Assembly: GCA_051874195.1 (NCBI GenBank)
Contig: JBJEFP010000114.1
Coordinates: 1,760-65,759, forward strand
Direction of reading: 5' to 3'
Length of the DNA: 64,000 nucleotides
Source: Lysinibacillus sp.
GTDB taxonomy: Bacteria > Bacillota > Bacilli > Bacillales_A > Planococcaceae
Positions 11,001 through 42,893 of the stretch are shown here, one piece after another. The notes below the pieces were generated by a model, which did not search any database, had not been told where the DNA came from, and saw only the letters and a list, made by a program, of their open reading frames with translations. The position numbers and the translations under genes were made by a program. Within the stretch, counting starts at the first letter, position 1. Each line of letters opens with the position of its first letter.

Positions 11001-11082
11001 ACTCTAACCTCTTTACTTTTAATAGTACCCTTCATTATAACAAGAAAAGGAACTTCCCAAAAGTTTGAGAAGTCCCTTTTTG

Positions 11083-21747: not shown

Positions 21748-22014
21748 TTATCGGCTTCGTTTTTCAACAACCAATTTCAATGCCGTACGGTCCTCACCTG
21801 CGATAGTAATATCCGCAAATGCCGGAGCACAAATTAAATCCGTTCCACTTGGTGCGACAAATCCGCGTGCTATTGCCACTGCTTTTACTGCTTGGTTTAA
21901 TGCCCCTGCTCCGACTGCCTGCATCTCGACATACCCTTGCTCCCGAATGACAGCAACTAAGGCACCTGCAACCGAATTTGGATTAGAGCGAGACGATACT
22001 TTTAATGAATCCAC
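21748..22014 (-). CDS. spoVS: Stage V sporulation protein S
   Basis: LKVSSRSNPNSVAGA...GAGALNQAVKAVAIARGF; GTG start at 22014 behind GGGGAGG. Confidence 0.96.
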   Translation of the reverse strand: MDSLKVSSRSNPNSVAGALVAVIREQGYVEMQAVGAGALNQAVKAVAIARGFVAPSGTDLICAPAFADITIAGEDRTALKLVVEKRSR

Positions 22015-22136
22015 AACTATTCCTCCCCAATTAGCTTTATATACGGCTAACAAATTTGTTGTCCGATAGCATAATGTATGCGGGGAAAAATCAAAATAGA
22101 CATGCTTTCACGAAAAAAATGGGTTCTTTATCAGCA

Positions 22137-23057
22137 TCATACATTCCACAGCATCAAAAATGCGGCAACGACCGCTGTCGCATACAATCCGAACGCAATC
22201 ATATATTCGACCGCCTTCTTCCAGCCTCCGCCTTCCGGTTTCTTGCCTGGCCCCGTCTGCTCAAGCGGCTCATACTGCCTCTTGAGACCGGATTCCTTGC
22301 GTTCCTTTTTGTCCTTCTTCGGCAATGCATTAAATTCCTTCACATAGCGGGCATACTCCTCCAGGACAGGACCCGCCTCGCCGAACATCCTTGTCTCGCC
22401 GTGTTCAAGCCACAATACCTTGTCACAGAAGTTCCGGACCTGGCTTTCGGAATGGCTGATGAAGAAAATCGTCTTCCCGCTTTCCTTGAATTCATTCATC
22501 TTGTCGATACACTTCTGGTAGAACGTTTTATCCCCGACCGACAGCGCTTCATCGACAATCAAAATATCCGGGTTCGTATGGATGGAAATGGCGAACCCCA
22601 GCCTCGACTTCATTCCGCTCGAGTAGTTTTTCACAGGCTGATTGATGAAATCGCCGATGTCGGCAAATTCGATGATATCAGGGATGAGCTGGCGGATTTC
22701 CTGCTGGGTGAGTCCGTGCATGAGACATTTCATTTTGATATTGTCGATGCCGCTCAATTGGTTATTCAGCCCGATGGCGATTGCAATGAGGGAAGGCTCT
22801 CCGTTAACCGTGATTTTCCCGGCCGTGGGAGGGACGATCTGGGCGATGAGATTGGACAGGGTGGACTTCCCCGCCCCGTTTAGTCCTACAACACCCACTA
22901 CTTCCCCTTCATACACCTCAAAGGAAATGTTCCGGAGGGCATTGAACTGCTTTGCCTTCTTCCTATTAAACAGAAATAACTCTTTTAACTTATCAGACTG
23001 CTTATTATATATTTTATAGGATTTACTTACATCCTCGAACACTACTTTCGGTTCCAT
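22137..23057 (-). CDS. tagH: Teichoic acid / polysaccharide ABC exporter ATPase (TagH/Wzt-like) with C-terminal TM helix
   Basis: [31 protein letters not shown]. Confidence 0.88.
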
Positions 23058-23067
23058 TTCGAACCTC

Positions 23068-23871
23068 CTACATTAAATCAACAAAGTGATTTCTGAATTT
23101 CACATGCAAACGGCTGGCTACCACGAGGATGAACAGCGCTATGCTCCAGAAATAAACCGTATAGGTCATATCCTCGAAAAACCATGTATCGCCGATGACC
23201 GACGCCCTTATCCCCTCGATGATATAGAAGAAGGGGTTCAGCTTCAGGACGACGATGAGGGCTGCATTCAGATTTTCCATGTTCCATAAAATCGGCAGCA
23301 GGAACATCATGAACCTTACGACCGCCTGCACAAGAAGCTGGATATCCCGTGCTACAATGGACAAGGTGGAAGTAAGCAGCGTCACGCCGTAGACGAGCAC
23401 GGCCATGCACACAAGATAATAGGGAAGCTGCAGGATATAGATGCCTGAAAACACACCGCCAGCCATGACCAGTACAATGCCGATCGCCATCATGACGACA
23501 AACGGAACAACATTGTTGAGCATCGCGATGGTCGGCAGCACACTGACCGGGAATTTCATCTTGGAGACGATGCCGATCTTACTGGAAATACTTTTCGTTC
23601 CCTGATTCAATACGGGTGCTATATACAACCAAGGGATAAGGCCTGTAATCAGCCAAAGGAAAAAAGGGACGTCCCCGACCGGAGACCCTCCCCTGATTCC
23701 CAGACCAAATACAAACCAATAGACGCTGATTTGCAATATAGGGTTCAAAAACTGCCACAATCCCCCTAAATAGTGGGATTGATAGCGGCTTTTGATGTCA
23801 TTTGCACTTACCCGAAAAATCAGGCTGAAGTGGCTGATTTGTTCCTTTATGACTGTAGATAAGGAGATCAT
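23068..23871 (-). CDS. tagG: Teichoic acid / polysaccharide ABC exporter permease (TagG/Wzm-like)
   Basis: [30 protein letters not shown]; ABC-2 membrane topology. Confidence 0.88.
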
Positions 23872-25145
23872 TGCATTACTGGTTCCTTCTTAAGCGCCTC
23901 GAATAGATTGCCATAGTTGTAGTATTCAATGCCTTCCTCAACTGAATCCACAATATTTTTTGTATCGAAAATCAGCTTTTCCTTCATCCCTGCCAAGTCC
24001 CCGGCCGTAAACTGCTTGAATTCGTTGTGGTCTGCCAGAACCAGTACCAGATCCGAATCAGCAACTGCCGCCGACAAGTCCTGCTCCACCCATGATTGGT
24101 TGACATGCGGGTCATATGCACGCACCTCAAGCTTCCCTTCAGCGCGCAATAAGTTGTAAATGTCCATTGCCGGACTTTCACGGATGTCGTCCACATTTCC
24201 TTTGTATGTCAGACCGAATACTGTGACCACTTTTCCGCCACGGCTTTCCATCAGCTCATTCACTTTTTCTACGACATAGTCAGGCATCGATACGTTGATT
24301 TCACGTGACAGGTTGATTAATTTCGCCGTTTCCGGTGCCTTTGCCACGATGAAGTACGGATCTACTGCAAGGCAATGTCCACCGACACCCGGACCTGGCG
24401 TATGCAGGTTTACACGCGGATGCTTGTTTGCCATTTCGATGACTTCAAGCGCATTTATTTCCAATTCATTACATACCTTCGCCAGTTCATTCGCCAGAGC
24501 GATGTTCACATCACGGAATGTATTTTCCATCAGCTTGGACATTTCGGCCGTCTTTGCATTCGTCTTGATGATTTCACCCTTCACAAACGTTCCATATACG
24601 CGGGCGCCAGCCTCTGTACAAGCAGGTGTGATACCTCCGACAATACGGTTGTTGTAAATTAATTCATGCAGGATTTGACCAGGCAATACACGCTCCGGAC
24701 AGTGCACAAGGTAGATATCCTGTCCTACGACAAAGCCCGCTTCCTCGACAAGCGGCTTGACGTAGTCATCCATACTCCGTGGCCCGATTGTTGATTCCAC
24801 AATGATCACATTTCCTTTTTCAACAAGCGGCAGCACGCGTCTTACCCCATCAAGTACATATGTGAGGTCACATGATTTATATTGGTCATCATTGTTCGGT
24901 GTCGGTACAGAAATGATGAAGGCATCCGCTTTTTCCGGTTCCATCGATGCCTTGAACTTGCTGCTGGCGATGACTTCCTCCAACGCCTCCTGCAAACCTG
25001 GCTCCTCGATATGGATGCGGCCGCTGTTCAGTGAATCAATTACTGATTGCTTGATATCTACTCCCACTACCTCCACGCCGTGCTTAGCAAACATGATGGA
25101 AGTTGGTAGTCCGATATATCCTAGTCCGATTGTACATAATTTCAT
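23868..25145 (-). CDS. wecC: UDP-N-acetyl-D-mannosamine dehydrogenase (makes UDP-ManNAcA)
   Basis: GLGYIGLPT, CPERVLPG, KLMENTFRDVNIA, PGPGVGGHC, YKGNVDDIRESP. Confidence 0.85.
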   Translation of the reverse strand: MKLCTIGLGYIGLPTSIMFAKHGVEVVGVDIKQSVIDSLNSGRIHIEEPGLQEALEEVIASSKFKASMEPEKADAFIISVPTPNNDDQYKSCDLTYVLDGVRRVLPLVEKGNVIIVESTIGPRSMDDYVKPLVEEAGFVVGQDIYLVHCPERVLPGQILHELIYNNRIVGGITPACTEAGARVYGTFVKGEIIKTNAKTAEMSKLMENTFRDVNIALANELAKVCNELEINALEVIEMANKHPRVNLHTPGPGVGGHCLAVDPYFIVAKAPETAKLINLSREINVSMPDYVVEKVNELMESRGGKVVTVFGLTYKGNVDDIRESPAMDIYNLLRAEGKLEVRAYDPHVNQSWVEQDLSAAVADSDLVLVLADHNEFKQFTAGDLAGMKEKLIFDTKNIVDSVEEGIEYYNYGNLFEALKKEPVMQ

Positions 25146-25158
25146 TGTGAAATCTCTC

Positions 25159-27288
25159 CTATACAGTTACATTTAGTGTGTAATTCTTTTTAAGTTCGCC
25201 TTTTTTTACAAAGACAACGCATTTTGCCGTCTCGATGTCTTCTTTATGCTGTTCCATGGGGAATTGGAATTTCGTGTTGCCGCTGTACCATTCCTTATGG
25301 ATTACTTCGTCGTTGATGATGACATAGTATGCATAGGACGCTTCGGGGAGCGGTCCCTTCACCTCAATGTTCAAATTGTCCTCATTGAGCGTGACGGACG
25401 TATTGGTCTCCAGGCTTTTCAGCAGCTGTGTGAATCTGGCTTCCTCCATCTCGCCGTTCATGAGATGGAACGACTTTTCAAACCGGTTATTAAACCGATC
25501 CCGAAGCTGGATCGTCAGCGTGTAGTCCGATTCATCTGATGGTAATGAAAAGGTCTTTTCAAACGTATCGAGCACCGGGTAGCCCGCCCGGCCGTTATGG
25601 AACACTCGTACGGAAGTCATCCACGCCTCATTGCAGGTGATTTCAAACCGGTTGGCGGCACCCTGCATCGGGATGGTCTCCTGCTCCGTCACATCCTGCC
25701 GATTTACCATCAGGCGAAAGTTCGTGTCTTGGAACTGCGGGTACGCCTCACTGCCTTCCACGTACGATAGCCAGTTGTTCAAAAGCTCCTTCAGCCGCAC
25801 ATCCTCCTCTACAGAAGCAAGCAGCGATAAAACCTCTACATTCAATAGATGGAAGCCTGCACTGTATTCAGGCGGGGTGCCTTCATCCATTACGTGGTGA
25901 AGGTTTTCAGCCGTAATGTCCCCCAAATCATAGAGGGGCAGGACTTTCCGTAACCGGCCTTTCCCTTCTTCATACAGGGACCGGTACCGTTCATCCTGCG
26001 TATAGTGCCAGGCATCCTGCAGGGCGAACAGGGCCATGATGTTCGATGGCAAGTCAAACAGCGGCTCTTTATAGTAAAGCGTCGTATACAACGCTTCGCC
26101 GCCTTCGTAAGGAAGCGTCCTTTGGCACGTTTGGAGCCTTTCCGCCAACTGACGGATCATTCCTTCATGCTGCCGGTTCCCTGCCGTCAAATCATAGCGG
26201 ATGAGGAACGTGATCAGCATCCCTATCAAATAGGAGGAACCGCCGAATATGTCGTTTTCCTGTTCTTCCTCCATGCGGCGGAACAGCTCATCTAAACGTC
26301 TGTCGATTTCCTGCATGTTGGCGGTTTGTCCTTGTTGCACGGCGTCGTTCAATAGGGTGAACAGGCCCTGCAAGAGTGCGTTCGTCCCCTTGAACCCGGC
26401 CATCTCTTCAAAATAGTCGCAGCCGCCTATGTCAGGCTCATGTCCACCGGTGAAGATTCTCCCGGACAATGTTGGCACAGGCTTTCCGTCAGGCTTGATT
26501 CTTGTATTGAAAAACAGCTGCATCGTCCTGCCGTTCACTTGCTTTTCATAGGTCGATGAAGCCCATGTGCCGGTCGCTTCGGAAAGCTTCTGCAGCAGAT
26601 CATGATAGTAGCCGTCTTCAAAATGATAAGGAGCCAGCCCCCATTTATGGGCCGCGCTTGCGTAGTACCGGTCATCCGTCATGTCGATGAAAATGAATTC
26701 AGGGAAGTTCTCCTCCACGAATGCATAATACCCGGCGAGCTCTTCATTCCGCATCTCGATTTCCTCTTTGTTCGGAAACTCCTTCACCGTTCCGTCGACA
26801 TCGAGGAAGTGATGTCTCCATTTCGTTTTATGGATGATGATGTTGTTGCCAAAATGGTCCTTTAATTTCCGGAAGAACAGTAACGCCTTCTTCTTCCACA
26901 ATTCCTGCATATCGCGATCCAGCTTTTTGGCAATCTCATAGCCTGTCAGCTTGTCGAGCACCTTCGACTTCACCAGCTCGTTCGAACGGGTGATGTAGGC
27001 GTCTCCAATCTTCACCAGATTCAGCCGCTCGGAAATGAAGTCAATGGCTATATATTCGCCCTTTTTCTGCTCCAGTTCACTGAAAAAGGTTTTGGAAATG
27101 TCACGTATCACGCATCTTTTTTGGAAGCTTGATGACAAGTCAATCAAGGAATGATCGATGTCTGCAGCAGGTGACATCATGCTGATGATGGACGTACGGG
27201 CGAAATATTCGTTCAGTTCAAAGTTGTTGGGTGCACATTCCAGCACATCTCTCGTTGTACATCCGCCTAATATATTTAAAGTCGTCAT
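25159..27288 (-). CDS. Multidomain protein: DUF6270-like N-terminus, D-glucuronyl C5-epimerase C-terminal-like domain, beta-rich C-terminal domains
   Basis: GGCTTRD...FARTSIIS...IDFISER (DUF6270 pattern); SLYEEG...LPLYDLG...H...W.SY.EG resembles the Glce C-terminal domain. Confidence 0.7.
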   Translation of the reverse strand: MTTLNILGGCTTRDVLECAPNNFELNEYFARTSIISMMSPAADIDHSLIDLSSSFQKRCVIRDISKTFFSELEQKKGEYIAIDFISERLNLVKIGDAYITRSNELVKSKVLDKLTGYEIAKKLDRDMQELWKKKALLFFRKLKDHFGNNIIIHKTKWRHHFLDVDGTVKEFPNKEEIEMRNEELAGYYAFVEENFPEFIFIDMTDDRYYASAAHKWGLAPYHFEDGYYHDLLQKLSEATGTWASSTYEKQVNGRTMQLFFNTRIKPDGKPVPTLSGRIFTGGHEPDIGGCDYFEEMAGFKGTNALLQGLFTLLNDAVQQGQTANMQEIDRRLDELFRRMEEEQENDIFGGSSYLIGMLITFLIRYDLTAGNRQHEGMIRQLAERLQTCQRTLPYEGGEALYTTLYYKEPLFDLPSNIMALFALQDAWHYTQDERYRSLYEEGKGRLRKVLPLYDLGDITAENLHHVMDEGTPPEYSAGFHLLNVEVLSLLASVEEDVRLKELLNNWLSYVEGSEAYPQFQDTNFRLMVNRQDVTEQETIPMQGAANRFEITCNEAWMTSVRVFHNGRAGYPVLDTFEKTFSLPSDESDYTLTIQLRDRFNNRFEKSFHLMNGEMEEARFTQLLKSLETNTSVTLNEDNLNIEVKGPLPEASYAYYVIINDEVIHKEWYSGNTKFQFPMEQHKEDIETAKCVVFVKKGELKKNYTLNVTV

Positions 27289-27321
27289 TCTTCTTACACA
27301 CCTCCTGCCTTTTCTTCAAAT

Positions 27322-28353
27322 TCATCCATCGATTCCCTGGAATGTTCCAGCTGGGATTTTCACTTCATGTTCTGCAGATTTTTGATAGACGATTCTATTG
27401 TCGGCGTCTTTAATGAATGCTACAAAATGATAGCATCCGGATTCCACCGCTATGAAACGTAATGTGTGGCTATCCGTATAAGGGAAGGTCTTCACCTTCT
27501 CCTTGTCCTTGAAAATGTACCAGGCATATCTAACTTCCTGATTCCCTGCTACGCTCAACAGGAATTCATGACCGTCCTGCTCCACCGTAAATGACGTAAT
27601 CTCCAGCGGTTCCTGTACGTTGGGTACGATTTCCATCAACTGCGATACGAGCAGCTTCTGGTAGAGGCTTACGTCCCCGTGGTTCGCAAATTCACCGACA
27701 TCCAGCTCACATGTAAAGCCATGCTGCTGCAGATGGTCGATGAAGGGAAGGACATGCCCTTTATAATGATGATCACCACGTCCGACATGGATGACCATTT
27801 GCGGCACCTTCTCTGCTTTTCTTACTAGCTCGAACAAAAGCTCATTGCAAAATGCAATATCTTCCTGTGATGTGCCTCCTGCTATGTACTGTAGCGTCGG
27901 ATATTCGCCAGCATTGTATAAATATCTTCCAAGGTACGTCTGCGGAGCGCCGACGATGGTATGACCGAAGCCGTATTTAATGGAGTAGTACAGGGCAGCG
28001 TAGCCCCCCTTGCTCGAACCGCAGCAAATAATGTTTTCATCCTTGATGGCATTTTCAGACGAGATGTGCCGGATTAATGAAATGACCGACTCCTCCACAT
28101 CAAACACCCTGTTTTCCCCAAGGTAGTAGCAGCCCCTGCCGCCGTAGTCATCCAGGATATACAGCTTGTTGACATCTACTTGCTGCAATGTCCGGATGTA
28201 GTTGTAGGCTGGCGGTGCCCCTACAGGATTGAACCCGGAAAACATGACGACCAAATGCTCGCTTTCCTGCTGGGCAGGAATGAATAAGTATTTGATTTTT
28301 CGTTTCCCGTTAAATATTTGTTCATTTTTGAGTAATGTTTTCATGTTTTTCAC
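27322..28353 (-). CDS. Asp2-like alpha/beta hydrolase-fold protein (probable O-acyl transferase/esterase) with C-terminal beta domain
   Basis: LVVMFSGF, YNYIRTL, GSSKGGYAALYY nucleophile elbow, DHHY. Confidence 0.7.
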   Translation of the reverse strand: MKNMKTLLKNEQIFNGKRKIKYLFIPAQQESEHLVVMFSGFNPVGAPPAYNYIRTLQQVDVNKLYILDDYGGRGCYYLGENRVFDVEESVISLIRHISSENAIKDENIICCGSSKGGYAALYYSIKYGFGHTIVGAPQTYLGRYLYNAGEYPTLQYIAGGTSQEDIAFCNELLFELVRKAEKVPQMVIHVGRGDHHYKGHVLPFIDHLQQHGFTCELDVGEFANHGDVSLYQKLLVSQLMEIVPNVQEPLEITSFTVEQDGHEFLLSVAGNQEVRYAWYIFKDKEKVKTFPYTDSHTLRFIAVESGCYHFVAFIKDADNRIVYQKSAEHEVKIPAGTFQGIDG

Positions 28354-29338
28354 CCACTACTGTCTTCGGATTTTCATCGTAGAGCAATGCTTCCAGTTCC
28401 TTGCATACGACTGACAGGTCATAATTCGACGACACAAAGCCCTTCAGCATCCCCACATCGACCAATTGATCTTGCAGGATATACTCCACCGCCTCGTCAT
28501 GCGACTCGAAGATGAATTGCTGCGGGAAGATCGTATTCACGCCTTCTCTTCTCAGCACGATTGGAACAGCTCCTGAAGCCATTCCTTCAATCGGGGCCAT
28601 ATGGAAGCTTTCGTAATCACTGACAGAAAGGACATAGCCAATGTTCTGCAGCCAGTCCGCTACATCGCCCCATCCTTCAAAGACGACGTTCTTTTTGTAC
28701 TCTGACTTCTCAATCCGCTCAAAAATCGCTTCATAGTGCTCCCGCTGCTCGGCATTATCCCATACCCAGCCGAAGTCCTTCGGGTGCTTGCCCTTGATGA
28801 ACAGCTTGTAGCGGTTATCCTTTGCATAGAGCTTTTCAAAAATATCAACGGCCCGGTCCAGGCGCTTGAGCTTCGGCACATAGCCGATGATGCCCAGGTT
28901 GAAGTTTGTCTTTGCCTTTTTCGGCTTGTCGAAGCGCTTTGTATCGATGGCATTGAAGATGACCTTCATCTTTTCCCTCGGCACTTTCGCTACTCTATAA
29001 AACTCTTCATAGATATAAGGGGAGATGGCGATGCACATATCAATCTTCGCATAGTCGAACATCTTGACATACTTCGTATCCATCTCGAAGCGGTGCAGGC
29101 GTACAATCAATTTCTGATGTTCCTTTTTGCGCTCCTGATACCAGATGACATTGCCGAGGCCCCACTCGCAGAAGAAGATGTCCGCCCATTCCGCGATTTC
29201 CATACTCCTCGCTTCATTATGGGCTTCATGGCCCTGCCATTCGTCGGTCTTCACCTCATACCCATCATGGTTTTTGAAAAACTCGATAATATGATTGATA
29301 AATTTTAAATCATGTCCTATAAAAGCTATTTTTTTCAT
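28322..29338 (-). CDS. Glycosyltransferase family 4
   Basis: GYVPKLKRLD, SVSDYESFHMAPIEGMASG (EX7E-type motif). Confidence 0.85.
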   Translation of the reverse strand: MKKIAFIGHDLKFINHIIEFFKNHDGYEVKTDEWQGHEAHNEARSMEIAEWADIFFCEWGLGNVIWYQERKKEHQKLIVRLHRFEMDTKYVKMFDYAKIDMCIAISPYIYEEFYRVAKVPREKMKVIFNAIDTKRFDKPKKAKTNFNLGIIGYVPKLKRLDRAVDIFEKLYAKDNRYKLFIKGKHPKDFGWVWDNAEQREHYEAIFERIEKSEYKKNVVFEGWGDVADWLQNIGYVLSVSDYESFHMAPIEGMASGAVPIVLRREGVNTIFPQQFIFESHDEAVEYILQDQLVDVGMLKGFVSSNYDLSVVCKELEALLYDENPKTVVGEKHENITQK

Positions 29339-29345
29339 AATTCAC

Positions 29346-31451
29346 CTATACCATCTTATATTGAATTTCGGCTTCGATATTCTCAACAGCTTGATAGTTT
29401 TCAATGAAGTTAAAACCATCGATGTTGAAGAATTGAGAGCCGTTTGTAAACCATTTGCTGATTTCACAGTCCTGCGCCAGGCATTCCATGAGCTCGTTCG
29501 GATTCTTCGTAAACAGGTTTTCCACCTTCAGGATCCCCTTGTCCAGAGAGCCGCGAGTGGAGAATCTGTACTGCTCTCCGTCAGCCTTCATGACGTGGGC
29601 ATCCGGCACGTATTTCGTCGCCAGCATCAAATCCGTCAGGTAGTTCTCTCCGTAGTAATGCGCCTGATTGAAGAACGCGATATATTTCACGCCAACCATC
29701 TGTTCGACGGAATTGTAATGGTGCATGTAATCCAATAGGAATGTGCTGATATTCTCTTTATTGTGTGTATTGAAGATGTCAAGATACCCTGGGAAGATGT
29801 CCAGCAGAATAATGCATTTTTTATGGGCATATTCCTGTCTCTCATACTGGGCCATCAGGCTTTCATAATCTTCCATGGACCTTACGATGCCTACCACCGC
29901 CACATCCGCTGCCGCCTGCTTGTATTCGACCTTCATGAAGTCCAGCATCTGTACGATGCGCTCCTCATACGTATGCTCCTGCAATACCTTGCGCAGGCCA
30001 AGTAATTTTGCCTTCTCGTAATACTCCTTATCCTCGAAGTAGTTCGAAATGCGCTCCTGCAGCTTGTTGAAGTCGTTCGATGCGACGACCAGATCCCCAA
30101 ACATATTTTCGATACCGAGCGATTTGGAGCTGACGACCGGTGTGTTGGATGCCAGGATTTCAAATACCCGTCTTGCGAACATCGTGGGTGAATCGACGAT
30201 ACTGTTAACGTTCAAGGCAATTTTATAGCCTTTGTATGCATAGTCGATCTCATCCCCGCGCAGCGTCCCGACGATATAGTCCTTGAAACGTTCAGGGAAC
30301 TGGTTCGGCGATTCCGGATTGTTGTAGTTCCGGTCAAAGATTTCAAGACCGTATTTCCCGGAAATATCAATCATATTATTCATGACCTCTGTACGTTCAG
30401 GGAATTTATCACCGTAATACGCCCCGGCGAATACAACCTTTTCTTTGCGTTCGTATTTCTCAATCGGATTGTGGTGCTTCGGCTGCGCTGCAAACGGGAA
30501 GACATCCACATTTTCGCACCCGTCCTTTTGATAGTGCTCGATGGACGTGGAGTCCGTCGTGAACACGTAATCAAAGTGCTTGGCCGTTTCAATGAATACA
30601 TCGTAATGGAACGGGTCTTCCTTGTTCCAGAAGATGGTCGGGATGTCATGGTTTTTGCACCATCTCACCAGCTCCAGCAAGTGCGTGTTGTTGCGCGGCC
30701 CCTTCGTACCGACCATGTTCGTCCAGTGGCCGTCATTGCCGACCCATGCCGACTCGCAGAAGAACAGGTCGATGTTGTTCGGGTTCAATTCCCCCTTCCA
30801 CTTGTACGGCTGTACTTTCAGGAGGTTGAACTCGGGCTCGAAGCTTCTTGTCGTGAATTCATCGCCGATAAAGATGACATTGAACTGCTTGATTTCCTTG
30901 TCAATACGCTTCACCTTATTGACATTCGAATCACGGCTGACTGTATACATGAACGGATTTTGTACGTACACGTAGCCTTTTCCGCTCGTTCGGATGCCGA
31001 ACTTGATGCCAGTCAATTTTTCCTTATTCGTCACCTTCAAATAGTTGAAGTTGTCCTGCAGCAGGCGATAGCTTTTCCGGTCCCCATCTTCATATAAAAG
31101 AATGAGATGGATTTCCGGGTTCGTCTGCTCCTCTTGATACAGCTTGAATTTGATTGCTACCTCCTCATGCTCCTTCAATACATTTTTAATTTGTTCAAGC
31201 ATGTCCATGTCTACAAAATAGGAGTAGCCGAATGCCTTTTCTTCGTAGTCGCATTTAATCGCTATGCCGTTATCTTCATTCGTAATTTGCACATGCTCGT
31301 TTCTGCTGAACTTATCGGCAGCGAACTGGAAATCCAGCACGCCAGACAGCTTGCAACCGTCAAAGCTTGGATTAATAGTGTATAGCTGTTCAACTAATTT
31401 CTTTCTCAGCTCTTGAAATTCTTGTTTTTTGTCTTCAATTAATTGCATCAC
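29346..31451 (-). CDS. Large glycosyltransferase (CgeB / Glyco_trans_1_2-like central domain)
   Basis: FFCESAWVGN, IFWNKEDP, FAAQP..HNP, ARRVFEILAS motifs. Confidence 0.8.
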   Translation of the reverse strand: MMQLIEDKKQEFQELRKKLVEQLYTINPSFDGCKLSGVLDFQFAADKFSRNEHVQITNEDNGIAIKCDYEEKAFGYSYFVDMDMLEQIKNVLKEHEEVAIKFKLYQEEQTNPEIHLILLYEDGDRKSYRLLQDNFNYLKVTNKEKLTGIKFGIRTSGKGYVYVQNPFMYTVSRDSNVNKVKRIDKEIKQFNVIFIGDEFTTRSFEPEFNLLKVQPYKWKGELNPNNIDLFFCESAWVGNDGHWTNMVGTKGPRNNTHLLELVRWCKNHDIPTIFWNKEDPFHYDVFIETAKHFDYVFTTDSTSIEHYQKDGCENVDVFPFAAQPKHHNPIEKYERKEKVVFAGAYYGDKFPERTEVMNNMIDISGKYGLEIFDRNYNNPESPNQFPERFKDYIVGTLRGDEIDYAYKGYKIALNVNSIVDSPTMFARRVFEILASNTPVVSSKSLGIENMFGDLVVASNDFNKLQERISNYFEDKEYYEKAKLLGLRKVLQEHTYEERIVQMLDFMKVEYKQAAADVAVVGIVRSMEDYESLMAQYERQEYAHKKCIILLDIFPGYLDIFNTHNKENISTFLLDYMHHYNSVEQMVGVKYIAFFNQAHYYGENYLTDLMLATKYVPDAHVMKADGEQYRFSTRGSLDKGILKVENLFTKNPNELMECLAQDCEISKWFTNGSQFFNIDGFNFIENYQAVENIEAEIQYKMV

Positions 31452-31453
31452 TA

Positions 31454-32530
31454 TTAACTCCTTTTCTTTTTAAATCCCCAATATTTTAAAGTCAGCTTGC
31501 CTAGCTTCGAATTTTTCAGCGCGTCGTACCTGCTTTCCAATAAGAGGTACCTTTCCTGCAGATCATTGAACTTGCCGGTCATTTCTTCATACTTGTTTTT
31601 GAAATACTTGTTCTCATTCACGAGCAATGTCGTTTCATTGATATAGATATCCATTTCATCAACGATGCGCAGCTTGTCCACAATCTGCTGTTCGACTTGT
31701 GCCTTCAGCTCTGTATGGTCGGCCGCCGCCTTCAAATATTTCGCCTCAAGCTGTTTGTTTTGCTCTTTCAGCGCCTTTTCCAGCTCCGTCTTCTTCTTCA
31801 ATTGCTCCTGCAATTGGTGAATCTGCTGTGTCAGATTCACCTTCTCCTGCTGCAAGGAATCGATTTGCTCGGGGATGGACTGGATGAGCATGTTCGTATC
31901 GCTCGTCTTCTGGACCAGCTCGCCTTTTAGTGAATGAAGCTCCTTATGCAGTGTCGAAATCTCCTTCAACACTTCCAGTTCAATTACCTTCGACTCGAAT
32001 TTTTGAGCTGGTGCCTCCTCGGGCTTGGGTTCAGGAGCGGTAACACCACTTAACCGTAAAAACAGTTCGTCCTGATCCGCCTCGGTATAGAAGGATGGGT
32101 AATACACTGTCTCATCCAGCAGCTCCTCCTTATATTCATAGAAGTTATTCACGCGGAGGATGCTCAGCAGATCTTCATTTGTCGCTGCCGTCACAATCGG
32201 TCTTTGGAAAGGGATGAGCTTGTTGATGATTTTCATTAAATTCTTTCTATTATTGATATATAGATAGATAACATCCGGATTCTCCAAGTTCTTCTCATCG
32301 ATAATGCCCTGAATCGTAAAGCTGCCTGAGATGAAAGGAATCGATATTTGCTCACTGCACTTGAAATTGTGGAGGACGCCCCCATTCCCGATTTTGAACA
32401 AATAGATTAATTCGTCTACATCGGCCCTTTCTGCACTCGACTTGATGTCCATATCACTGAAGATATATTTGACGAGGGATTTTTTTTCGCTTTCTTTATA
32501 GACTTGTTTATCGATGGTTAACTGATACAT
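31454..32530 (-). CDS. Hypothetical protein with long C-terminal coiled coil and basic amphipathic tail
   Basis: Heptad-rich E/K/Q/L region over about 160 aa; ends in NSKLGKLTLKYWGFKKKRS. Confidence 0.8.
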   Translation of the reverse strand: MYQLTIDKQVYKESEKKSLVKYIFSDMDIKSSAERADVDELIYLFKIGNGGVLHNFKCSEQISIPFISGSFTIQGIIDEKNLENPDVIYLYINNRKNLMKIINKLIPFQRPIVTAATNEDLLSILRVNNFYEYKEELLDETVYYPSFYTEADQDELFLRLSGVTAPEPKPEEAPAQKFESKVIELEVLKEISTLHKELHSLKGELVQKTSDTNMLIQSIPEQIDSLQQEKVNLTQQIHQLQEQLKKKTELEKALKEQNKQLEAKYLKAAADHTELKAQVEQQIVDKLRIVDEMDIYINETTLLVNENKYFKNKYEEMTGKFNDLQERYLLLESRYDALKNSKLGKLTLKYWGFKKKRS

Positions 32531-33824
32531 TCCTGTTTGCCTCCTCTAACTTTTCATAAAGTTCGACCAATACTTCTTTTTCTAGCTCCCAGTTGTAATT
32601 GTGCCTTGCCGATAAGGCATTCTCACTAAAGGCATTTCTTTTTTCACGGTTTTGCGTCAGCTCGTTCACTGCCCAAGCAATTTCGGCTGGGTTATGGGAA
32701 TCGATGCACAATCCAATCTCCTCCCCTTCTACCACCTTCCTGATTTCCGGAAAGCTGCAGGCAACGACAGGGACCCCGGCCATCATGTACTCGAACAGCT
32801 TATTAGACGATGCCGAATAATGATTGAAGCATACATTGTTCAAGATCTGGAACCCTAAATAGGCGTTGGCCGTATAGGCGGGCAGGTCCTGCAACGGTAC
32901 TTTCGGCAGGAATTTCACCCGCTCTTCCAATTGCATGTCACGTACCTTCTGCATGAGCTCTCCCTTGATCTTGCCATCTCCTATCAGCACGACGACCCCT
33001 TCTTTAAACAACGGAACGGCCTCAATCAATTTGTCCAAGCCGCGGCCGGTTTGTATGCCTCCCTGATAGAGCAATATTTTCTCTTTTTCTTGTATGCCTA
33101 ATAAATCATGTAAATTTACTACGTTTTGGGTTTGCACATTAGCAGTAAACGGGTAATTATGAACGACATGGGGATAAAAGCCGTATAATTCCTCGTTATA
33201 CGCGGCGCGGGTATGATTTTCAACAATCATGACATCCGCCTTCTTGACGAAATAGCTTTCCAACATCCCATGGATACGGCCATAGCCTGTACGACTCGTT
33301 TGCACCTCATGCGAATCATAGACGAGCTTTTTAGGAAGAAATCTAAGCTTTGCGCACATATATCCTTGCGGCAGTGTATTCAAATCATTCGAATGGTAGA
33401 TGTCATACCGCTTTTGCCTGCCCCTCCAAATCATCCGGCCGATGATGCAAAGGTTGATCACTACCTTTTTCACCTTTGTCTTGAGCAGGGCGAAGATCAG
33501 GATGGAAAGGACGACCGTCATGAGCGGCCATGCCCACAGTGAGATGAGCCAGCCTGCTACAAGCGCGGCAGCCAGCGCCTTATTTTCTTTCACCGCACGG
33601 ATGAGCCCCTGCATCCACACAAGGAGCACCGGATAACGACGCACCCTCTGTACGGTGAAGCGTTCATTCAGCTTCTCCTCAAAAGGCATCGTCCTGTCAT
33701 TCGGGTCATGGATGCATATCAAATCGACATGGTACCCTTCCTCGGATAATGCGGTGCACTCTCGCATGACACGCGCATCATTTGTAAAGTGGTTCCATAC
33801 GAACATACATATTTTCTTTTCCAT
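32508..33824 (-). CDS. Glycosyltransferase family 4
   Basis: NDARV.RE, YDSHE, YQGGI..GRG, SNKLFEYMMAGVPVV. Confidence 0.88.
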   Translation of the reverse strand: MEKKICMFVWNHFTNDARVMRECTALSEEGYHVDLICIHDPNDRTMPFEEKLNERFTVQRVRRYPVLLVWMQGLIRAVKENKALAAALVAGWLISLWAWPLMTVVLSILIFALLKTKVKKVVINLCIIGRMIWRGRQKRYDIYHSNDLNTLPQGYMCAKLRFLPKKLVYDSHEVQTSRTGYGRIHGMLESYFVKKADVMIVENHTRAAYNEELYGFYPHVVHNYPFTANVQTQNVVNLHDLLGIQEKEKILLYQGGIQTGRGLDKLIEAVPLFKEGVVVLIGDGKIKGELMQKVRDMQLEERVKFLPKVPLQDLPAYTANAYLGFQILNNVCFNHYSASSNKLFEYMMAGVPVVACSFPEIRKVVEGEEIGLCIDSHNPAEIAWAVNELTQNREKRNAFSENALSARHNYNWELEKEVLVELYEKLEEANRNVSVNHR

Positions 33825-33825
33825 T

Positions 33826-35088
33826 TCAGTTAACCTTGCTGTCCATATTCATCATTTCTTTTTTTGGTTCCAGCTTGCAGACGTTCTGCACAGCATCTTC
33901 ATTTTCGATTGCATCAATCAGTGTTTGGATATTCGACTCCCACAGGAAATCCTGTTGAATGACTTTTTGGTTATTCAGGGCAATTTCTTCCGCAACATCT
34001 TGTTGGTTCTTCAGGTGGATGATGAAACGGACAATTTCATCCACATTTCGAGTTTCCGATACATAGCCGATTCCTTTTTCTTCAATCAGCGACTTGATAT
34101 AGCCAGACGCCCCAGCCGCAATCGGCAGCCCGCATGCAATATAGTCGATCAGCTTACCGGGCAAGACCGTTTCAAATACCTCCTCATCCTTTAAACAGAG
34201 GACGCCGACATGATTCTGCTTAATCAGTTCTAGGCACCCTTTTCTCGTCATCGCCCGTATGAAATGCACGTTATTGAGATGGCGCTCCTTTACAAACCGC
34301 TGCAGCTCGACCTTTTTCAATCCGAAGCCCACTACATTCAAGCGAATGCCCTCCTCGTGAAGGGCTATTGAAAGCCCCTTGAGAAATTCCACATCCTGTG
34401 CAAGTCCGATATTGCCGGAATACACAACTGCAAATTCCCCCTTTTCCTGCCGTTTGAAGACCAATTCCTCTTTACGGATAGAATTCGGGATGAAATAGAT
34501 GGGCTTTTCTTTCTTCAAGCGCGACTTGATGTGACTGTGAAACCCCCTGCTATTGATGACAATGGAATCGGCCCTGTTGTATAAATACTTTTCCATCAAT
34601 TTGAATAACGAAATAATCCATTTATAATTAAAAACACCTACACCTCTTAAAGAATCCGGCCACAAATCCCGAACATCCAAAATCAATTTTGCTTTAAATC
34701 GAAATTTTGCCAATACGCCAACCACACCAAGAAAAATCGGGGGGCTGGTGACAAGCACTGCATCATATCTGCTTTTAGAAAATAAAATCATCCAAATCAT
34801 CCGACACATCATTTCCAAATAATAAAGCAGTCGATTGAACATGTTTCTCGTATATTTCCGGTTCGCCACCTTCACACGATGAATCTGTTCATCTTCATTG
34901 AGCTCCCTGTCATGCCAAAATTGCTTTTCTACATATAATTTTTTGTTCGGATAAGAAGCCTCCGTTGTCAGGACGTGGACTTCATATTGCTTATTTAAAA
35001 GCTGATAAATATTTTTAATACGGTTCCCTGCACTTCCTATTTCAGGATAAAAATTCTGACTTATTACCAATAGACGTTTTTTGGACAT
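33826..35088 (-). CDS. Glycosyltransferase family 4 (WbuB-like)
   Basis: QNFYPEIGS, TSPP, DVRDLWPD, YSGNIGLAQ, PGKLIDYIACG. Confidence 0.88.
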   Translation of the reverse strand: MSKKRLLVISQNFYPEIGSAGNRIKNIYQLLNKQYEVHVLTTEASYPNKKLYVEKQFWHDRELNEDEQIHRVKVANRKYTRNMFNRLLYYLEMMCRMIWMILFSKSRYDAVLVTSPPIFLGVVGVLAKFRFKAKLILDVRDLWPDSLRGVGVFNYKWIISLFKLMEKYLYNRADSIVINSRGFHSHIKSRLKKEKPIYFIPNSIRKEELVFKRQEKGEFAVVYSGNIGLAQDVEFLKGLSIALHEEGIRLNVVGFGLKKVELQRFVKERHLNNVHFIRAMTRKGCLELIKQNHVGVLCLKDEEVFETVLPGKLIDYIACGLPIAAGASGYIKSLIEEKGIGYVSETRNVDEIVRFIIHLKNQQDVAEEIALNNQKVIQQDFLWESNIQTLIDAIENEDAVQNVCKLEPKKEMMNMDSKVN

Positions 35089-35341
35089 TTTTTAGCCCCT
35101 TTACCTCTGCAAATGTTGTCGAACACTGATGCAAGTTCTCTCACCTACTTCGTCCACCCCCTGCCGGCTCAGCCTTCTTACCTAGGAAACTTCTAGTAGT
35201 GATCAATCATTTATCTTTTTTACTCCATGTAATCATCCTGTCCACCCTTGCTTCAGGAGACCCTTTTCGAATGGCTGCCGCCATTTGCTCCATCATCATG
35301 CAGCATGGATTGTTAACAACGAAATACAACAGCTACCAGCC

Positions 35342-35371
35342 TTCTTGCAAAGGCCTTCCTGCTTGCAAGAA
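35342..35371 (-). terminator. Hairpin downstream of the 278-aa membrane-anchored protein gene
   Basis: ttcttgcaa / ttgcaagaa inverted repeat; no strong T tract. Confidence 0.45.
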
Positions 35372-35421
35372 ATGAGGTGGTGGTATTTCCACTAGATTCA
35401 TGGTGATCTACCTAAATTTTC

Positions 35422-36258
35422 TTATTTGATTTCCTCCAAAGCCTTTTTCATGAGCGCGGAACGCCGTTGTTCTTTCGCCTGTTCATATTCAGTACGGAAG
35501 CTTTTGGACTCTGATTTGTTGAACCCGTTGGCTACAAGGTCAGCCTCGACTACCTTCATCAGATTTTCAAAGGCTGCGTCCGTTGATTCTTCCAGAGCAC
35601 TGGAGGAATTCATATACTTCGTGTAGAAGTACCCGGCACTGACTTTTTCGCCATTTGCTTTTTTCTGTGTATATTCCTTTTTCGCAGCAGCTACTAAATT
35701 GTTGACGCGTGCCTCCGCTTGTTCCTCTAGCGAAACAAATGTACCGCGGTATTTTTCCCTTATGGATTCCGCTGTTACGGGAGCCGGCTTGGCAGCAGGA
35801 GGGTTGTTACTAGGCTGCGGATTTGCCGGTTTGGCTGGCGCCGCCTCTTTTTTCACAGGCTCCTCCTCTTTTACAACCGTTTCCGTTTGCTCTTCTTTAG
35901 CCGGAGGGACTGTATTTGCAGGACTTGTTGTCGATTCCTTTGGAGCGGCATTCGCTACAGGTACATTATTTTCGTCCTTTTTCTCCGTCTCAGCTTTCGC
36001 CACTGCTTCAACTTCGGCTTCCTCTGCTTTAGCAGTTGCCTCATTGTTTTCTTCTATGATTTTTCCATCTTTCCCAATCTTCATCGTAGTGCCATCAGGT
36101 AGCTCGATTTCATACCCTTCTTCTACAATGCCATCCACTTCTTCATCCGCTATGTCATACGTTTTGAATTTGAATTCATAAAGAACATAGCTGCCACCGA
36201 GTAAAATGACGACTCCAAGAGATAGTAATAACCATTTGAGTATTCTCATTTTTGACAA
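35422..36258 (-). CDS. Membrane-anchored extracellular hypothetical protein (TM, Ala/Glu/Pro-rich linker, helical C-terminal domain)
   Basis: N-terminal hydrophobic helix, low-complexity linker, 278-aa clean ORF. Confidence 0.8.
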   Translation of the reverse strand: MSKMRILKWLLLSLGVVILLGGSYVLYEFKFKTYDIADEEVDGIVEEGYEIELPDGTTMKIGKDGKIIEENNEATAKAEEAEVEAVAKAETEKKDENNVPVANAAPKESTTSPANTVPPAKEEQTETVVKEEEPVKKEAAPAKPANPQPSNNPPAAKPAPVTAESIREKYRGTFVSLEEQAEARVNNLVAAAKKEYTQKKANGEKVSAGYFYTKYMNSSSALEESTDAAFENLMKVVEADLVANGFNKSESKSFRTEYEQAKEQRRSALMKKALEEIK

Positions 36259-36337
36259 TTTCGCCTTCTTCCTGTTGTGTAAGGTGAGGTCCTTGAATGA
36301 ACTCCCTAAAGCATTTCTGCTTTAGGGAGAAAAATCA

Positions 36338-37618
36338 TTATTCAAATTCAACCGTATATGTTACACCTGCAACTGTAATCGTGATGCCGTTATTATATTT
36401 CTCTCGAAGCTCCCCTACAGTCCTCACAAGCCCGTTTTCACGATGGGCTTCATCGATAAAACGGTCCGTATTTTCAATGACAGCATTACGATTGATGTCG
36501 AATGTCGTATCATCAAAGTAATCAGCACGCTGGAATTCTTGAGAATGGTCACCCGCTCTTACTGTTATAGTTTCTAGCGAATCAAATAGTAGAGCAGCAG
36601 AAGGTGCAGGAATTTCTTCAATTAAATCGAAGAAATTCATTCCTTCCTGTACCTCTCGTAAAATGTGGCGAATTTCGACAAGCTCTAAATCATCTGAAAT
36701 GAATGAAACGCGAACCGTATTGTCATCTTCTAATTCAAGAGTGGCGACCGATGCCGCTTCATCTCCAAAGGCTTCTATCAAGTTTTCAATAGCGGCATCC
36801 AGTGCCTCTTTAATCGGTGCAGGTTGAGGACTAGGTGTGCCTCCCTCACCCGGGTCTGTCGGCGGTGTTGGCGGCGTTGGTGTATCTCCTCCGCCCGGTT
36901 CCGTTGGCGGTGTTGGTGTATCTCCTGGATCAGGATTGATACCGACATCCGGATCTACCCCCGTATCCGGGTTCTCACCTTCACCCGGGTTCGGTTTGCC
37001 TACTACTTTTTCAGCGCGGACGACAAGTGAAGCAAATTGTCCTCTCTTAATCGGGGCCAATGGGCTGTATGTATGTGCAGTAGTCCCCGTTGTCACACCA
37101 TTGGCATAAAGAATTCCGATATAATTGATGAAACTCTCGGCTCCTTTTAAATCTTTGAAAGGCGTTTCCAGATAGCCTGTCAGGTCGAATGCCTCGACGA
37201 TGACTTTCGCCATCTGACCGCGCGTAATGGCATCATGCTGTCCATAAGTGCCGTCAGGGCGGCCCGAAATGATTCCTTCAGCTTTTAATGCAGCGATTGC
37301 TCCGTAATATTCATCCGTTTTCTTCACATCCGAAAACCCTGGGTCGGCAACATTTTCCGTATCCAATTCCAGAACATTCGCGATAATTTTCGCCGCCTGG
37401 CCGCGTGTCAATGCAGCCGCCCATCTGAAGGTGCCATCTGAATAACCCTTTATTACTCCTCGTTCCGCCAATTCCGAAATGGCCCATGCATGACTGTTTG
37501 TGCTGTCTACATCCTTGAACGTTATTGCTGCCTCTGATTGAGTTGGCACGACGGCAACCACTCCCGCTGAAGCCACTGCTGAAGCCAATGCAATATTAAA
37601 TGCTTTTTTATGTTTCAT
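36338..37618 (-). CDS. Secreted SLH-domain cell-surface protein with Pro/Gly/Thr linker and unrecognised C-terminal domain
   Basis: Signal peptide; three SLH repeats (LTRGQ, ITRGQ, IKRGQ); PTPPT repeats. Confidence 0.88.
   Translation of the reverse strand: MKHKKAFNIALASAVASAGVVAVVPTQSEAAITFKDVDSTNSHAWAISELAERGVIKGYSDGTFRWAAALTRGQAAKIIANVLELDTENVADPGFSDVKKTDEYYGAIAALKAEGIISGRPDGTYGQHDAITRGQMAKVIVEAFDLTGYLETPFKDLKGAESFINYIGILYANGVTTGTTAHTYSPLAPIKRGQFASLVVRAEKVVGKPNPGEGENPDTGVDPDVGINPDPGDTPTPPTEPGGGDTPTPPTPPTDPGEGGTPSPQPAPIKEALDAAIENLIEAFGDEAASVATLELEDDNTVRVSFISDDLELVEIRHILREVQEGMNFFDLIEEIPAPSAALLFDSLETITVRAGDHSQEFQRADYFDDTTFDINRNAVIENTDRFIDEAHRENGLVRTVGELREKYNNGITITVAGVTYTVEFE
36868..36926. 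repeat. Internal 23-bp duplication (36-bp period) in the Pro-rich linker of the SLH protein
   Basis: ttggcggcgttggtgtatctcct (36868) and ttggcggtgttggtgtatctcct (36904). Confidence 0.85.
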
Positions 37619-37892: not shown

Positions 37893-38714
37893 TTACCCTT
37901 CAAAAGGGTAATCTTCGTTGATGTAAATTCTTTCCTGACGCCGTGCTTTCCCGGTTTTATCATCTATTTCGACAAAAAAACCACTTAGGACATCTCGCCC
38001 TTTTTTCGGAACTTCGAAACGTGCCGGCATATTTGTCTGAAATTTATAGATGACACTTTCCTTTGTCATACCCAGGATTTCATCGTATGGTCCTGTCATC
38101 CCGACATCGGTAATATAGGCAGTCCCGCCAGGATAAATACGGGCATCCGCTGTTTGTACATGGGTATGCGTTCCGACGACAGCAGACGCTCGCCCGTCCA
38201 GATGCCAGCCAAGTGCAATCTTTTCACTCGTGGCCTCCGCATGGAAGTCAACAAAGACAAGGGGGGATACCTTCTTAGCCTCCGCCACCAATTCGTCTGC
38301 CATTGCAAACGGATCTTCATGTGGAGGCAGGAATACACGCCCATGCAGATTGATGACACTGAGTGTCACACCGTTCTTCTCGATTTGCAGCATTCCTTTA
38401 CCCGGGGCGTCCTTCGAAAAGTTCGCCGGACGGATAAGGTAGTCCGCATCATCGATGAAATCGAAAATATCCTTGTTGTCCCACGTATGGTTGCCCATCG
38501 TGATGACGTCGACCCCCATCTGCAATAGGTCATTATAAATGCTACGGGTAATTCCGCGGCCTGCCGCTGCATTCTCTCCATTTGCAATGACTACGTCCAC
38601 CGCATACTTCCTCTTCAGGCGGGGCAAATATTTTGCAACTGCATCTCGGCCAATCGAACCTACGATATCGCCAATAAATAATACTTTCATTTTTCCGACC
38701 ACACTTTCTTTCAA
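37893..38714 (-). CDS. ymdB: YmdB-family metallophosphoesterase
   Basis: IGDIVG, NGENAA, MGNHTWD, DFHAEATSEK, GTHTHV, TDVGMTG. Confidence 0.96.
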   Translation of the reverse strand: MKESVVGKMKVLFIGDIVGSIGRDAVAKYLPRLKRKYAVDVVIANGENAAAGRGITRSIYNDLLQMGVDVITMGNHTWDNKDIFDFIDDADYLIRPANFSKDAPGKGMLQIEKNGVTLSVINLHGRVFLPPHEDPFAMADELVAEAKKVSPLVFVDFHAEATSEKIALGWHLDGRASAVVGTHTHVQTADARIYPGGTAYITDVGMTGPYDEILGMTKESVIYKFQTNMPARFEVPKKGRDVLSGFFVEIDDKTGKARRQERIYINEDYPFEG

Positions 38715-39342: not shown

Positions 39343-39990
39343 TTATCTTTTATAGATTTCCTCACAGCGCAGCACGAAGGATGCCAGCTGGCCGCGTGTG
39401 ACCGGGTCGTTCGGGCTGAATGTCGAGCGGGATGTCCCTTTTGTGATGCCAAGCTCGTACAAGGTAATGATGAAATCGATATACTCGGAGCTGTTCACAT
39501 CGATGAATGGTGTATCTGCATTGCCTGTCTGTTGGAATTGGAAAGCCTTCACGAGAATTTTTGCCATCTGGGCACGTGTCAGTGGGGCGTTCGGACGGAA
39601 TGTGCCATCTCCATAGCCATTGATGATGCCTGCCTCTACCAATGCTGCAATGCCTCGATAGTGGGAGTTGTCCGGTGTTACATCAAGGAAGCCCGGGTCT
39701 GGAACATTTGCCGTATTAAGATCCAGGACATTGGCGATGATGCTCGCAACCTGACCACGTGTCACCTGCTGGTTCGGACGGAATGTACCATCCTTATAGC
39801 CTTTGATAACTTGTCGGTCCGCCAGCTTATAAATACTGGCATGGTGACTGTGTCTGTCATTCACATCTTTAAATTTGTGACCGCCTTGCTTTTTCCCTCC
39901 CATATGGGCATCTGCGCTTATCGGCACGACGATGGAAGCTGTCATGAGAGAGGCTGTAGTGGCTAATGCAATAATTTTTTTCTGATTCAT
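39343..39990 (-). CDS. Secreted protein made of a signal peptide and three SLH repeats only
   Basis: VTRGQ, LTRAQ, VTRGQ SLH motifs; protein ends about 10 aa after the third repeat. Confidence 0.88.
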   Translation of the reverse strand: MNQKKIIALATTASLMTASIVVPISADAHMGGKKQGGHKFKDVNDRHSHHASIYKLADRQVIKGYKDGTFRPNQQVTRGQVASIIANVLDLNTANVPDPGFLDVTPDNSHYRGIAALVEAGIINGYGDGTFRPNAPLTRAQMAKILVKAFQFQQTGNADTPFIDVNSSEYIDFIITLYELGITKGTSRSTFSPNDPVTRGQLASFVLRCEEIYKR

Positions 39991-42792: not shown

Positions 42793-42893
42793 GATGCACC
42801 TCCTTCTCTATTATAGCGGTTGATTTGCATTATTTCCTCAAAGCGATAAAATAGAATGTGAAGAAAATAATAAAAATATACTGCAGGTGTAAT

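Follow-up and report, generated by a model that had tools for sequence, protein, structure and literature searches.

The eukaryotic D-glucuronyl C5-epimerase (Glce) is the closest described relative of the protein domain considered here, and its catalytic residues are listed as E499, Y500, N510, Y560 and Y578 in PMC13308652, which cites Debarnot 2019. Among bacterial proteins, RED65_08024 of Bermanella marisrubri belongs to the same Pfam family; it is cited as the sole bacterial homologue of Glce whose activity has been shown (Raedts 2013), and a Glce-like mechanism has been reported for it (PMC13308652). For N-acetyl-D-mannosaminuronic acid (ManNAcA), papers on VPS from 2014–2015 only proposed an inversion at C5 and named no dedicated epimerase, and no enzyme for the conversion of ManNAcA to N-acetyl-L-gulosaminuronic acid (L-GulNAcA) is named in the literature that we searched. 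Here we examine a gene for a 709-aa protein in a window of 64,000 nt from Lysinibacillus sp. (assembly GCA_051874195.1, contig JBJEFP010000114.1, positions 1,760–65,759 of the forward strand; the window is this whole stretch). The gene is a single intact ORF on the minus strand (25159..27288, −), with AGGAGG 5' of its ATG, and joins a DUF6270 domain, a Glce-like alpha-helical barrel and two immunoglobulin (Ig)-like domains. The barrel is genuinely homologous to the catalytic domain of Glce, with replacements at catalytic positions. We give about even chances to the explanation that this is a multi-domain cytoplasmic tailoring protein whose barrel no longer acts as a Glce-type epimerase and is kept as a constrained folded module, the chemistry being done by an SGNH-like DUF6270 domain.

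The homology of the barrel (residues 297–512, approximately eight long helices; 25753..26400, −; delimited from AlphaFold2 (AF2), Foldseek and hhalign) was evident with several methods. The Pfam model C5-epim_C (PF06662) matched residues 408–507 (25768..26067, −) with 47.1 bits (gathering cut-off 23.3; E 2.5e-12), a partial match that spans profile positions 88–187 of 188 and not the whole model. A phmmer search of PDB sequences aligned residues 417–515 with human (6i01, E 4e-10; 6hzz, E 1e-9) and zebrafish Glce (4pw2, E 4e-5), and comparison by hhalign with a profile that combined 51 homologues from bacteria returned a probability of 99.8% (E 2.5e-28). A full-length AF2 model was built from a 49-sequence alignment (mean predicted local distance difference test (pLDDT) 86, predicted template modelling score 0.73); when it was searched against the PDB with Foldseek, the eight top-ranking chains were all Glce (E 2e-7 to 5e-6, approximately 182 columns, root-mean-square deviation 4.3 Å, 21–27% identity), and the model forms the same kind of alpha-helical barrel as the C-terminal domain of Glce. 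An initial annotation of this DNA had placed a Glce-like domain beside wecC at 25753–26091 (−) and had proposed a hidden Markov model (HMM) search with C5-epim_C as a check. These coordinates translate to residues 400–512, which read exactly as quoted there, and both the significant C5-epim_C match and the Foldseek result bear out the assignment.

Two other origins of the resemblance were considered and rejected. Chance similarity to Glce is ruled out by the Pfam, phmmer, Foldseek and hhalign scores, and a mannuronan C5-epimerase of the AlgG/AlgE type, a right-handed beta-helix, is ruled out because the model is an alpha-helical barrel and no such matches were obtained. The barrel is ~26% identical to Glce over some 180 structurally aligned columns and has the motifs LYxxG, LPLYD.G, L.H,.H and W.SY..G in common with it. 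The two proteins differ in that the beta-hairpin and beta-sandwich N-terminal domains of Glce are replaced by DUF6270, in that the Lysinibacillus protein is bacterial and cytoplasmic, and in that its neighbouring gene makes ManNAcA and not glucuronic acid.

At the catalytic positions the barrel departs from Glce, with three of the five residues clearly replaced. In the ungapped phmmer alignment to human Glce, Y560 corresponds to E461 (25906..25908, −), so that the YDL motif reads ENL within TAENLHH, and Y578 corresponds to F479 (25852..25854, −), so that DYH reads GFH; both replacements had been read correctly in the initial annotation. E461 is invariant among the close homologues of the protein. 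The change at F479 is the Tyr-to-Phe difference that is also seen between PDB entries, as 6i01, which is labelled as a substrate complex, has Phe where the wild-type 6hzz has Tyr578. We take 6i01 to be an inactive trapping mutant of Glce.

The third replacement concerns N510. Here a three-residue insertion in human Glce shifts the register of the alignment to it; bacterial homologues have the same spacing as our protein. L413-P414-S415 falls on the L-N-G of the canonical motif in four alignments (MAFFT A1, MAFFT A2, hhalign and a custom HMM), and in the AF2 model a helix begins at these three residues. This agreement among alignments with equal spacing, together with the helix start, indicates that N510 corresponds to P414 (26047..26049, −; placed from alignments to bacterial homologues). 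The earlier equation of LNG with PSN was therefore in the wrong register, and N416 lies two residues downstream.

The remaining pair, E499 and Y500, is carried in canonical proteins by a YEEYPT motif that has no counterpart here; the protein reads E-A-L-Y-T-T-L-Y-Y-K-E-P, which contains no recognizable E-Y pair. In the N-terminal half of the barrel the motifs DGSWP and WxSAxxQG have disappeared, and this half is approximately 70 residues shorter than in canonical relatives. What is left of this half is shortened and degenerate, is not recognized by HMMs and could be aligned only by global hhalign with low confidence. Neither the absence of YEEYPT nor the degenerate N-terminal half had been noted in the initial annotation. 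In sum, the differences from Glce are Y560 to E, Y578 to F, N510 to P, the absence of the E499-Y500 motif and a shorter N-terminal half. Because catalytic Tyr and Asn residues and much of the N-terminal half are lost, we infer that epimerization by the Glce mechanism is most likely gone. The initial annotation had left open whether the domain is a pseudo-enzyme or a variant enzyme; the substitutions on which that choice was based stand, and the truncation, F479 and an acceleration confined to this domain (see below) tilt the evidence towards lost Glce-type catalysis.

The substituted barrel has a narrow distribution. A phmmer search with residues 240–525 against 1.84 billion representative proteins gave 62 matches, of which only cluster P0004 was close (E 6e-121), and the others covered only the last ~100 residues at ~30% identity. 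Searches with the single sequence and with profile A1 returned the same six close homologues both times; their word-index step missed relatives of the P0009 type (below), and it was the exhaustive search of representatives that brought the canonical family to light. The substituted version is limited to our protein and these six homologues, which form a clade of seven sequences that are 68–91% identical. By genome scan the clade is found in a Lysinibacillus sp. metagenome-assembled genome (MAG), Lysinibacillus sp. 3P01SB, L. odysseyi and, as a partial sequence, a Planococcaceae MAG, and its locus is syntenic throughout, including in L. odysseyi. Nearly all of the 42 aligned distant homologues retain (Y/F)EEYPT...LNG...(Y)DLxH...YHxxH. 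Two distant C5-epim_C homologues, P0036 (FFWLIH/ASHVMH) and P0059 (LSHLGH/SNHKSA), also have no equivalents of Tyr560 and Tyr578, which indicates that these tyrosines have been lost more than once in the family.

Canonical versions of the same module survive in related bacteria. In an Ornithinibacillus sp. (L009:10004-12211), a 735-aa protein has the same architecture of DUF6270, C5-epim_C and two Ig-like domains and is followed directly by a wecC homologue (70% identical), with homologous GT4, Glyco_trans_1_2 and TagGH genes nearby. The 727-aa metagenomic protein P0009 shares its architecture and canonical motifs. Both proteins, which are uncharacterized, differ from ours in retaining FYEEYPT..LNG..AYDLSH..GYHLTH and a full-length barrel. 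In Bacillus pinisoli (L012), the two domains lie side by side as separate polypeptides, a canonical 340-aa epimerase (9500-10522) and a 241-aa DUF6270 protein (10550-11275), with a GT4-like gene upstream and wecC-tagG downstream; here the epimerase is basic (isoelectric point (pI) 9.5) and there are no Ig-like domains. The Ornithinibacillus and B. pinisoli loci have WecC (70–73% identity), TagG/H, both GT4 glycosyltransferases and homologues of a 701-aa glycosyltransferase in common with the window. As canonical versions occupy homologous loci, the version in the clade is derived from an ancestral combination of DUF6270, C5-epimerase and wecC. With tagGH, these genes make up a recurrent uncharacterized module in wall-polymer loci of Bacillaceae.

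An HMM built from 51 canonical sequences separates the two forms, with 351–363 bits for the Ornithinibacillus (351) and B. pinisoli proteins and 82–90 bits for the clade (90 for our protein), where it covers only positions 199–307 of 311; in our protein the match takes in only the last 109 positions of the barrel. Neither in the window nor within the 10 kb that flank the clade loci did this HMM detect a second C5-epimerase-like ORF. The motif-intact Glce-type epimerases of the Ornithinibacillus and B. pinisoli loci lie directly upstream of wecC/cap5O and tagG, with DUF6270 fused or adjacent (L009:10004-13491; L012:9500-12655). The proposal in the initial annotation that D-ManNAcA might be converted to L-GulNAcA at the polymer level in a Gram-positive wall polymer would fit these canonical, wecC-adjacent relatives better than it fits our protein, and they are plausible candidates for polymer-level ManNAcA C5-epimerases.

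Comparison of evolutionary rates across the protein shows that the change was confined to the barrel. Three-taxon branch lengths for DUF6270 were similar for our protein (0.48), the Ornithinibacillus protein (0.39) and the B. pinisoli protein (0.47). The corresponding values were 1.00, 0.52 and 0.30 for the C-terminal half of the barrel and 1.48, 0.74 and 0.58 for its N-terminal half. The 2–3-fold acceleration on the lineage of our protein is thus specific to the barrel, with near-equal branches in DUF6270. Synonymous divergence (dS) was saturated between the genomes compared (at least 1.3 where estimable), so that nonsynonymous divergence (dN) and the three-taxon protein branch lengths are the usable measures. 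DUF6270 had the lowest dN (0.10), compared with values of 0.16–0.24 in the C-terminal half of the barrel, 0.25–0.32 in its N-terminal half and 0.14–0.24 in the protein's C-terminus. In the barrel dN falls well short of the saturated dS, with a dN/dS of ~0.13 or less where estimable. On these values the barrel is not decaying and is under selection.

The DUF6270 domain is, in comparison, intact. It occupies residues 1–238 (26575..27288, −; delimited from Pfam, a domain model, Foldseek and column counts), and the Pfam model PF19786 matched residues 6–223 over its full profile (1–222 of 222; E 1.5e-54). Together with the two Ig-like domains, it forms the larger part of the protein and lay outside the initial annotation. 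Every family-conserved residue is retained (G8, C10, R13, D14, R31, D83, R88, N181 and H214). Column counts over 77 members of the family, drawn from many phyla, show no variation at G8, D14, D83 and R88; C10, R13 and R31 are present in 76 and N181 is present in 72. H214 is conserved too, but it had belonged to the search pattern. An AF2 model of the domain alone (11 sequences, pLDDT 92.8) had SGNH/GDSL acylhydrolases and the peptidoglycan O-acetyltransferase PatB as its top Foldseek matches in the PDB (E 6e-4 to 1e-2, template modelling scores 0.43–0.55), which supports, with moderate strength, an SGNH-like flavodoxin-type fold.

The family may also have counterparts of the SGNH blocks: G-(S/G)-C has Cys in the Ser position in 76 of the 77 sequences, and an Asp lies three residues before H214 in 35. 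The G-x-C after strand 1 and the (D/S)xxH that precedes the final helix would correspond to the GDS and DxxH of PatB (7TLV/8TLB) and of the AlgX/AlgJ O-acetyltransferases/esterases, with Cys10 as the likely nucleophile. Our protein differs from these enzymes in having Cys for the Ser nucleophile, in being cytoplasmic and not periplasmic, and in matching no SGNH family by sequence. We offer an SGNH-like fold that carries a conserved Cys as a first structural hypothesis for DUF6270. In the tailoring of alginate, acyl modification is paired with C5-epimerization.

DUF6270 is found in Firmicutes, Actinobacteria, Proteobacteria, Nitrospira and archaeal MAGs. Of the 76 loci that lie outside the clade, a homologue of the 701-aa Glyco_trans_1_2 (CgeB-like) protein lies within 10 kb in 48 and within 1.5 kb in 23, a WecC-like dehydrogenase is present in 33, a C5-epimerase domain is lacking in 72, and only the Ornithinibacillus and B. 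pinisoli loci have an epimerase. From this rarity of the epimerase we conclude that DUF6270 is the core partner of these uronic-acid polysaccharide systems and that the epimerase is accessory. A very different possibility is that the protein has no enzymatic role at all and serves as a scaffold or assembly factor for the complex of polymerase and exporter, with DUF6270 and barrel both inactive. The protein does consist of several modules, Ig-like domains often serve protein contacts and DUF6270 proteins have no known activity; the near-invariant G-x-C...R-D...D..R...N...H across phyla looks like the pattern of an active site, however, and we regard a pure scaffold as highly improbable.

Our favoured explanation, a tailoring protein with a retired epimerase barrel, can be put as a series of steps. 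The ancestor would have joined DUF6270 to a canonical uronosyl C5-epimerase of the Glce type and to two Ig-like domains, a fusion of the kind that survives in Ornithinibacillus. In the Lysinibacillus odysseyi-group clade the epimerase domain would then have lost its catalytic tyrosines and asparagine along with a large part of the barrel's N-terminal half, and purifying selection would have retained the barrel as a folded module with a structural role or a role in binding a ligand or partner. The 709-aa protein may now carry out cytoplasmic tailoring in a TagGH ABC-transporter-dependent pathway for what we infer to be a ManNAcA-containing wall polymer. DUF6270, with a site of the Cys10/His214 type, would probably add an acyl group to the nascent polymer, or remove one from it, before export. 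A membrane or secreted location was ruled out, as there is no signal peptide, transmembrane helix or hydrophobic segment (maximum 19-residue hydropathy 1.38), and the lack of a signal peptide or transmembrane segment points to action on the cytoplasmic face before export by TagGH.

For annotation of the window, the 709-aa gene should not be labelled as an active glucuronyl C5-epimerase. The clade provides a natural, lineage-restricted Glce-family domain without the catalytic tyrosines that is nevertheless under selection, which may help to separate residues for catalysis from residues for binding.

Several observations weigh against this explanation. The stretches that replace the canonical motifs are the best conserved parts of the barrel: YTTLYYKEPLFDLPSN, which includes the LYTTLYY.EPLFD.PS stretch, is 81% invariant in the clade, TAENLHH is invariant at seven of seven positions and PEYSAGFHLLN is 82% invariant, against a background of 35–48% in the barrel. 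This conservation suggests that some function persists at the old catalytic site, and it makes the strongest case for a variant enzyme or for ligand binding by the barrel. Candidate acid/base residues are also present there, namely E461, H464, H465, Y401, Y405, Y406 and E408, of which Y401, Y405, Y406 and E408 are close to the expected site of E499/Y500. The position of that pair was itself placed in three ways by three alignments (E408/gap, T403/L404 and L400/Y401, with low confidence for hhalign). For the DUF6270 part of the explanation, no SGNH Pfam family matched the protein at E ≤0.1, so that the SGNH assignment is based on the moderate Foldseek scores; no paper in the literature searched mentions DUF6270.

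These features of the barrel could instead reflect a variant active enzyme that epimerizes or otherwise transforms a uronic acid in the nascent polymer, for example D-ManNAcA to L-GulNAcA, with E461, H464/H465, Y401/Y405/Y406 and E408 as the candidate set acting in place of Y500, Y560 and Y578. Such an enzyme would account for replaced motifs that are invariant in a clade of only 68–91% overall identity and for the low dN/dS of the barrel. Catalysis by His and Tyr is found in other C5-epimerase families (PMC3068255; PMC13308652). The gene is also adjacent to wecC, as are its canonical relatives in orthologous loci, which makes a ManNAcA polymer a plausible ancestral substrate. We nevertheless consider a variant enzyme doubtful, because it would have to work with the Phe that replaces Y578 also in the 6i01 substrate complex, without N510 and the YEEYPT loop and with approximately 70 residues of the N-terminal half deleted, because an acidic surface is poorly suited to a polyanionic substrate, and because a 2–3-fold lineage acceleration in the barrel is typical of relaxed or changed constraint.

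A specific form of this possibility, in which the barrel has been rebuilt as a new active site (E461, H464/H465, Tyr401/405/406 and E408) that acts on wall-polymer ManNAcA, giving for example L-GulNAcA, seems unlikely. A related possibility is that the canonical Ornithinibacillus and B. pinisoli epimerases are the missing polymer-level ManNAcA C5-epimerases, in which case the clade would be either a natural loss-of-function form or a mechanistic variant of them.

The charge of the barrel bears on a further alternative. The domain is acidic (pI 4.7, 19 K+R against 34 D+E, net charge −15), whereas the canonical barrels have a pI of 9.5 in B. pinisoli (net charge +13) and 6.3 in Ornithinibacillus. 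This surface does not support the initial annotation's module for binding a uronic-acid polymer as it was written. It also makes distinctly improbable the related idea that the barrel is a dead, lectin-like domain that binds such a polymer and presents it to DUF6270. In its favour, the barrel keeps its fold and has conserved motifs at the former substrate cleft, and the tandem Ig-like domains could widen the binding surface; apart from the reversal of charge, however, the canonical motifs that line the cleft, WxSAxxQG and DGSWP, are gone.

Outside the DUF6270 domain and the barrel, the protein contains a linker with a beta-hairpin (residues 239–296; 26401..26574, −; from AF2 secondary structure, with a lower pLDDT of 66–83) and, at the C-terminus, two Ig-like beta-sandwich domains joined by a helix (residues 513–709; 25162..25752, −; from AF2 secondary structure and Foldseek). 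Beyond the Glce chains, Foldseek with the full-length model matched residues 513–709 to tandem Ig/fibronectin type III domains, and the relative P0010 gave a faint Y_Y_Y match that may be compared with this region. No homology was detected by BLASTP between the first and second Ig-like domains or between this C-terminal region and the Y_Y_Y-like tail of the neighbouring gene product. NCBIfam contains no model for the 709-aa protein, and none of the sequencing runs held more than 12% of the 31-mers of the gene.

The surrounding genes form a same-strand operon in the order two GT4 genes, a coiled-coil gene, the 701-aa glycosyltransferase, a GT4-like gene, an XcbB/CpsF- and Asp2-like gene, the 709-aa gene, wecC, tagG and tagH. 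The wecC/cap5O-type UDP-ManNAc dehydrogenase (23868..25145, −) starts 13 nt downstream of the 709-aa ORF; the best PDB match of its product was Cap5O, the UDP-ManNAc dehydrogenase of Staphylococcus aureus (637 bits, E 8e-191), which confirms the adjacent wecC of the initial annotation. It is followed by tagG and tagH for the wall-polymer ABC exporter (22137..23871, −; assigned by library matches). Immediately upstream of the 709-aa gene lies that for a 343-aa alpha/beta-hydrolase that resembles XcbB/CpsF and Asp2 and has a Y_Y_Y-like tail (27322..28353, −; weak matches that include Peptidase_S9). This gene fills the slot that is held in B. pinisoli by the stand-alone epimerase, and an Asp2-like gene adjoins that for P0009 (L087:10582-11391).

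The glycosyltransferase part of the operon (28322..35088, −) encodes the GT4-like protein (338 aa), the 701-aa Glyco_trans_1_2 protein, a 358-aa coiled-coil protein and two GT4 proteins. The 701-aa Glyco_trans_1_2/DUF3880 protein (29346-31451, −) has no PDB relative by sequence, and its core (approximately residues 185–615) recurs in larger ORFs of up to ~2,000 aa beside DUF6270 in other phyla; it is likely to be a polymerase. The gene for the coiled-coil protein (31454-32530, −) shares 23 nt with the upstream GT4 gene and was present only in our clade among the loci examined. We speculate that its product is a chain-length ruler as in ABC-dependent polysaccharide pathways.

The operon lies between ymdB and spoVS in a region (ftsK...recA-rny-ymdB...spoVS...mutS-mutL) that is otherwise ordinary for Bacillales. 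More precisely, the glycopolymer locus (22137-37618) is wedged between ymdB (37893-38714) and spoVS (21748-22053), and the arrangement in L. odysseyi (L001) is alike. As ymdB and spoVS are presumably neighbours in B. subtilis, the locus would be an insertion. Proteins with S-layer homology (SLH) domains flank the operon, and just upstream of it are two proteins with SLH domains as well as a YfhO/GT2 (CsbB-like) pair (36338-37618, −; 39343-39990, −; 40174-42792, −; 42858-43844, +), which together suggest an S-layer-type surface and probable glycosylation of a teichoic-type polymer.

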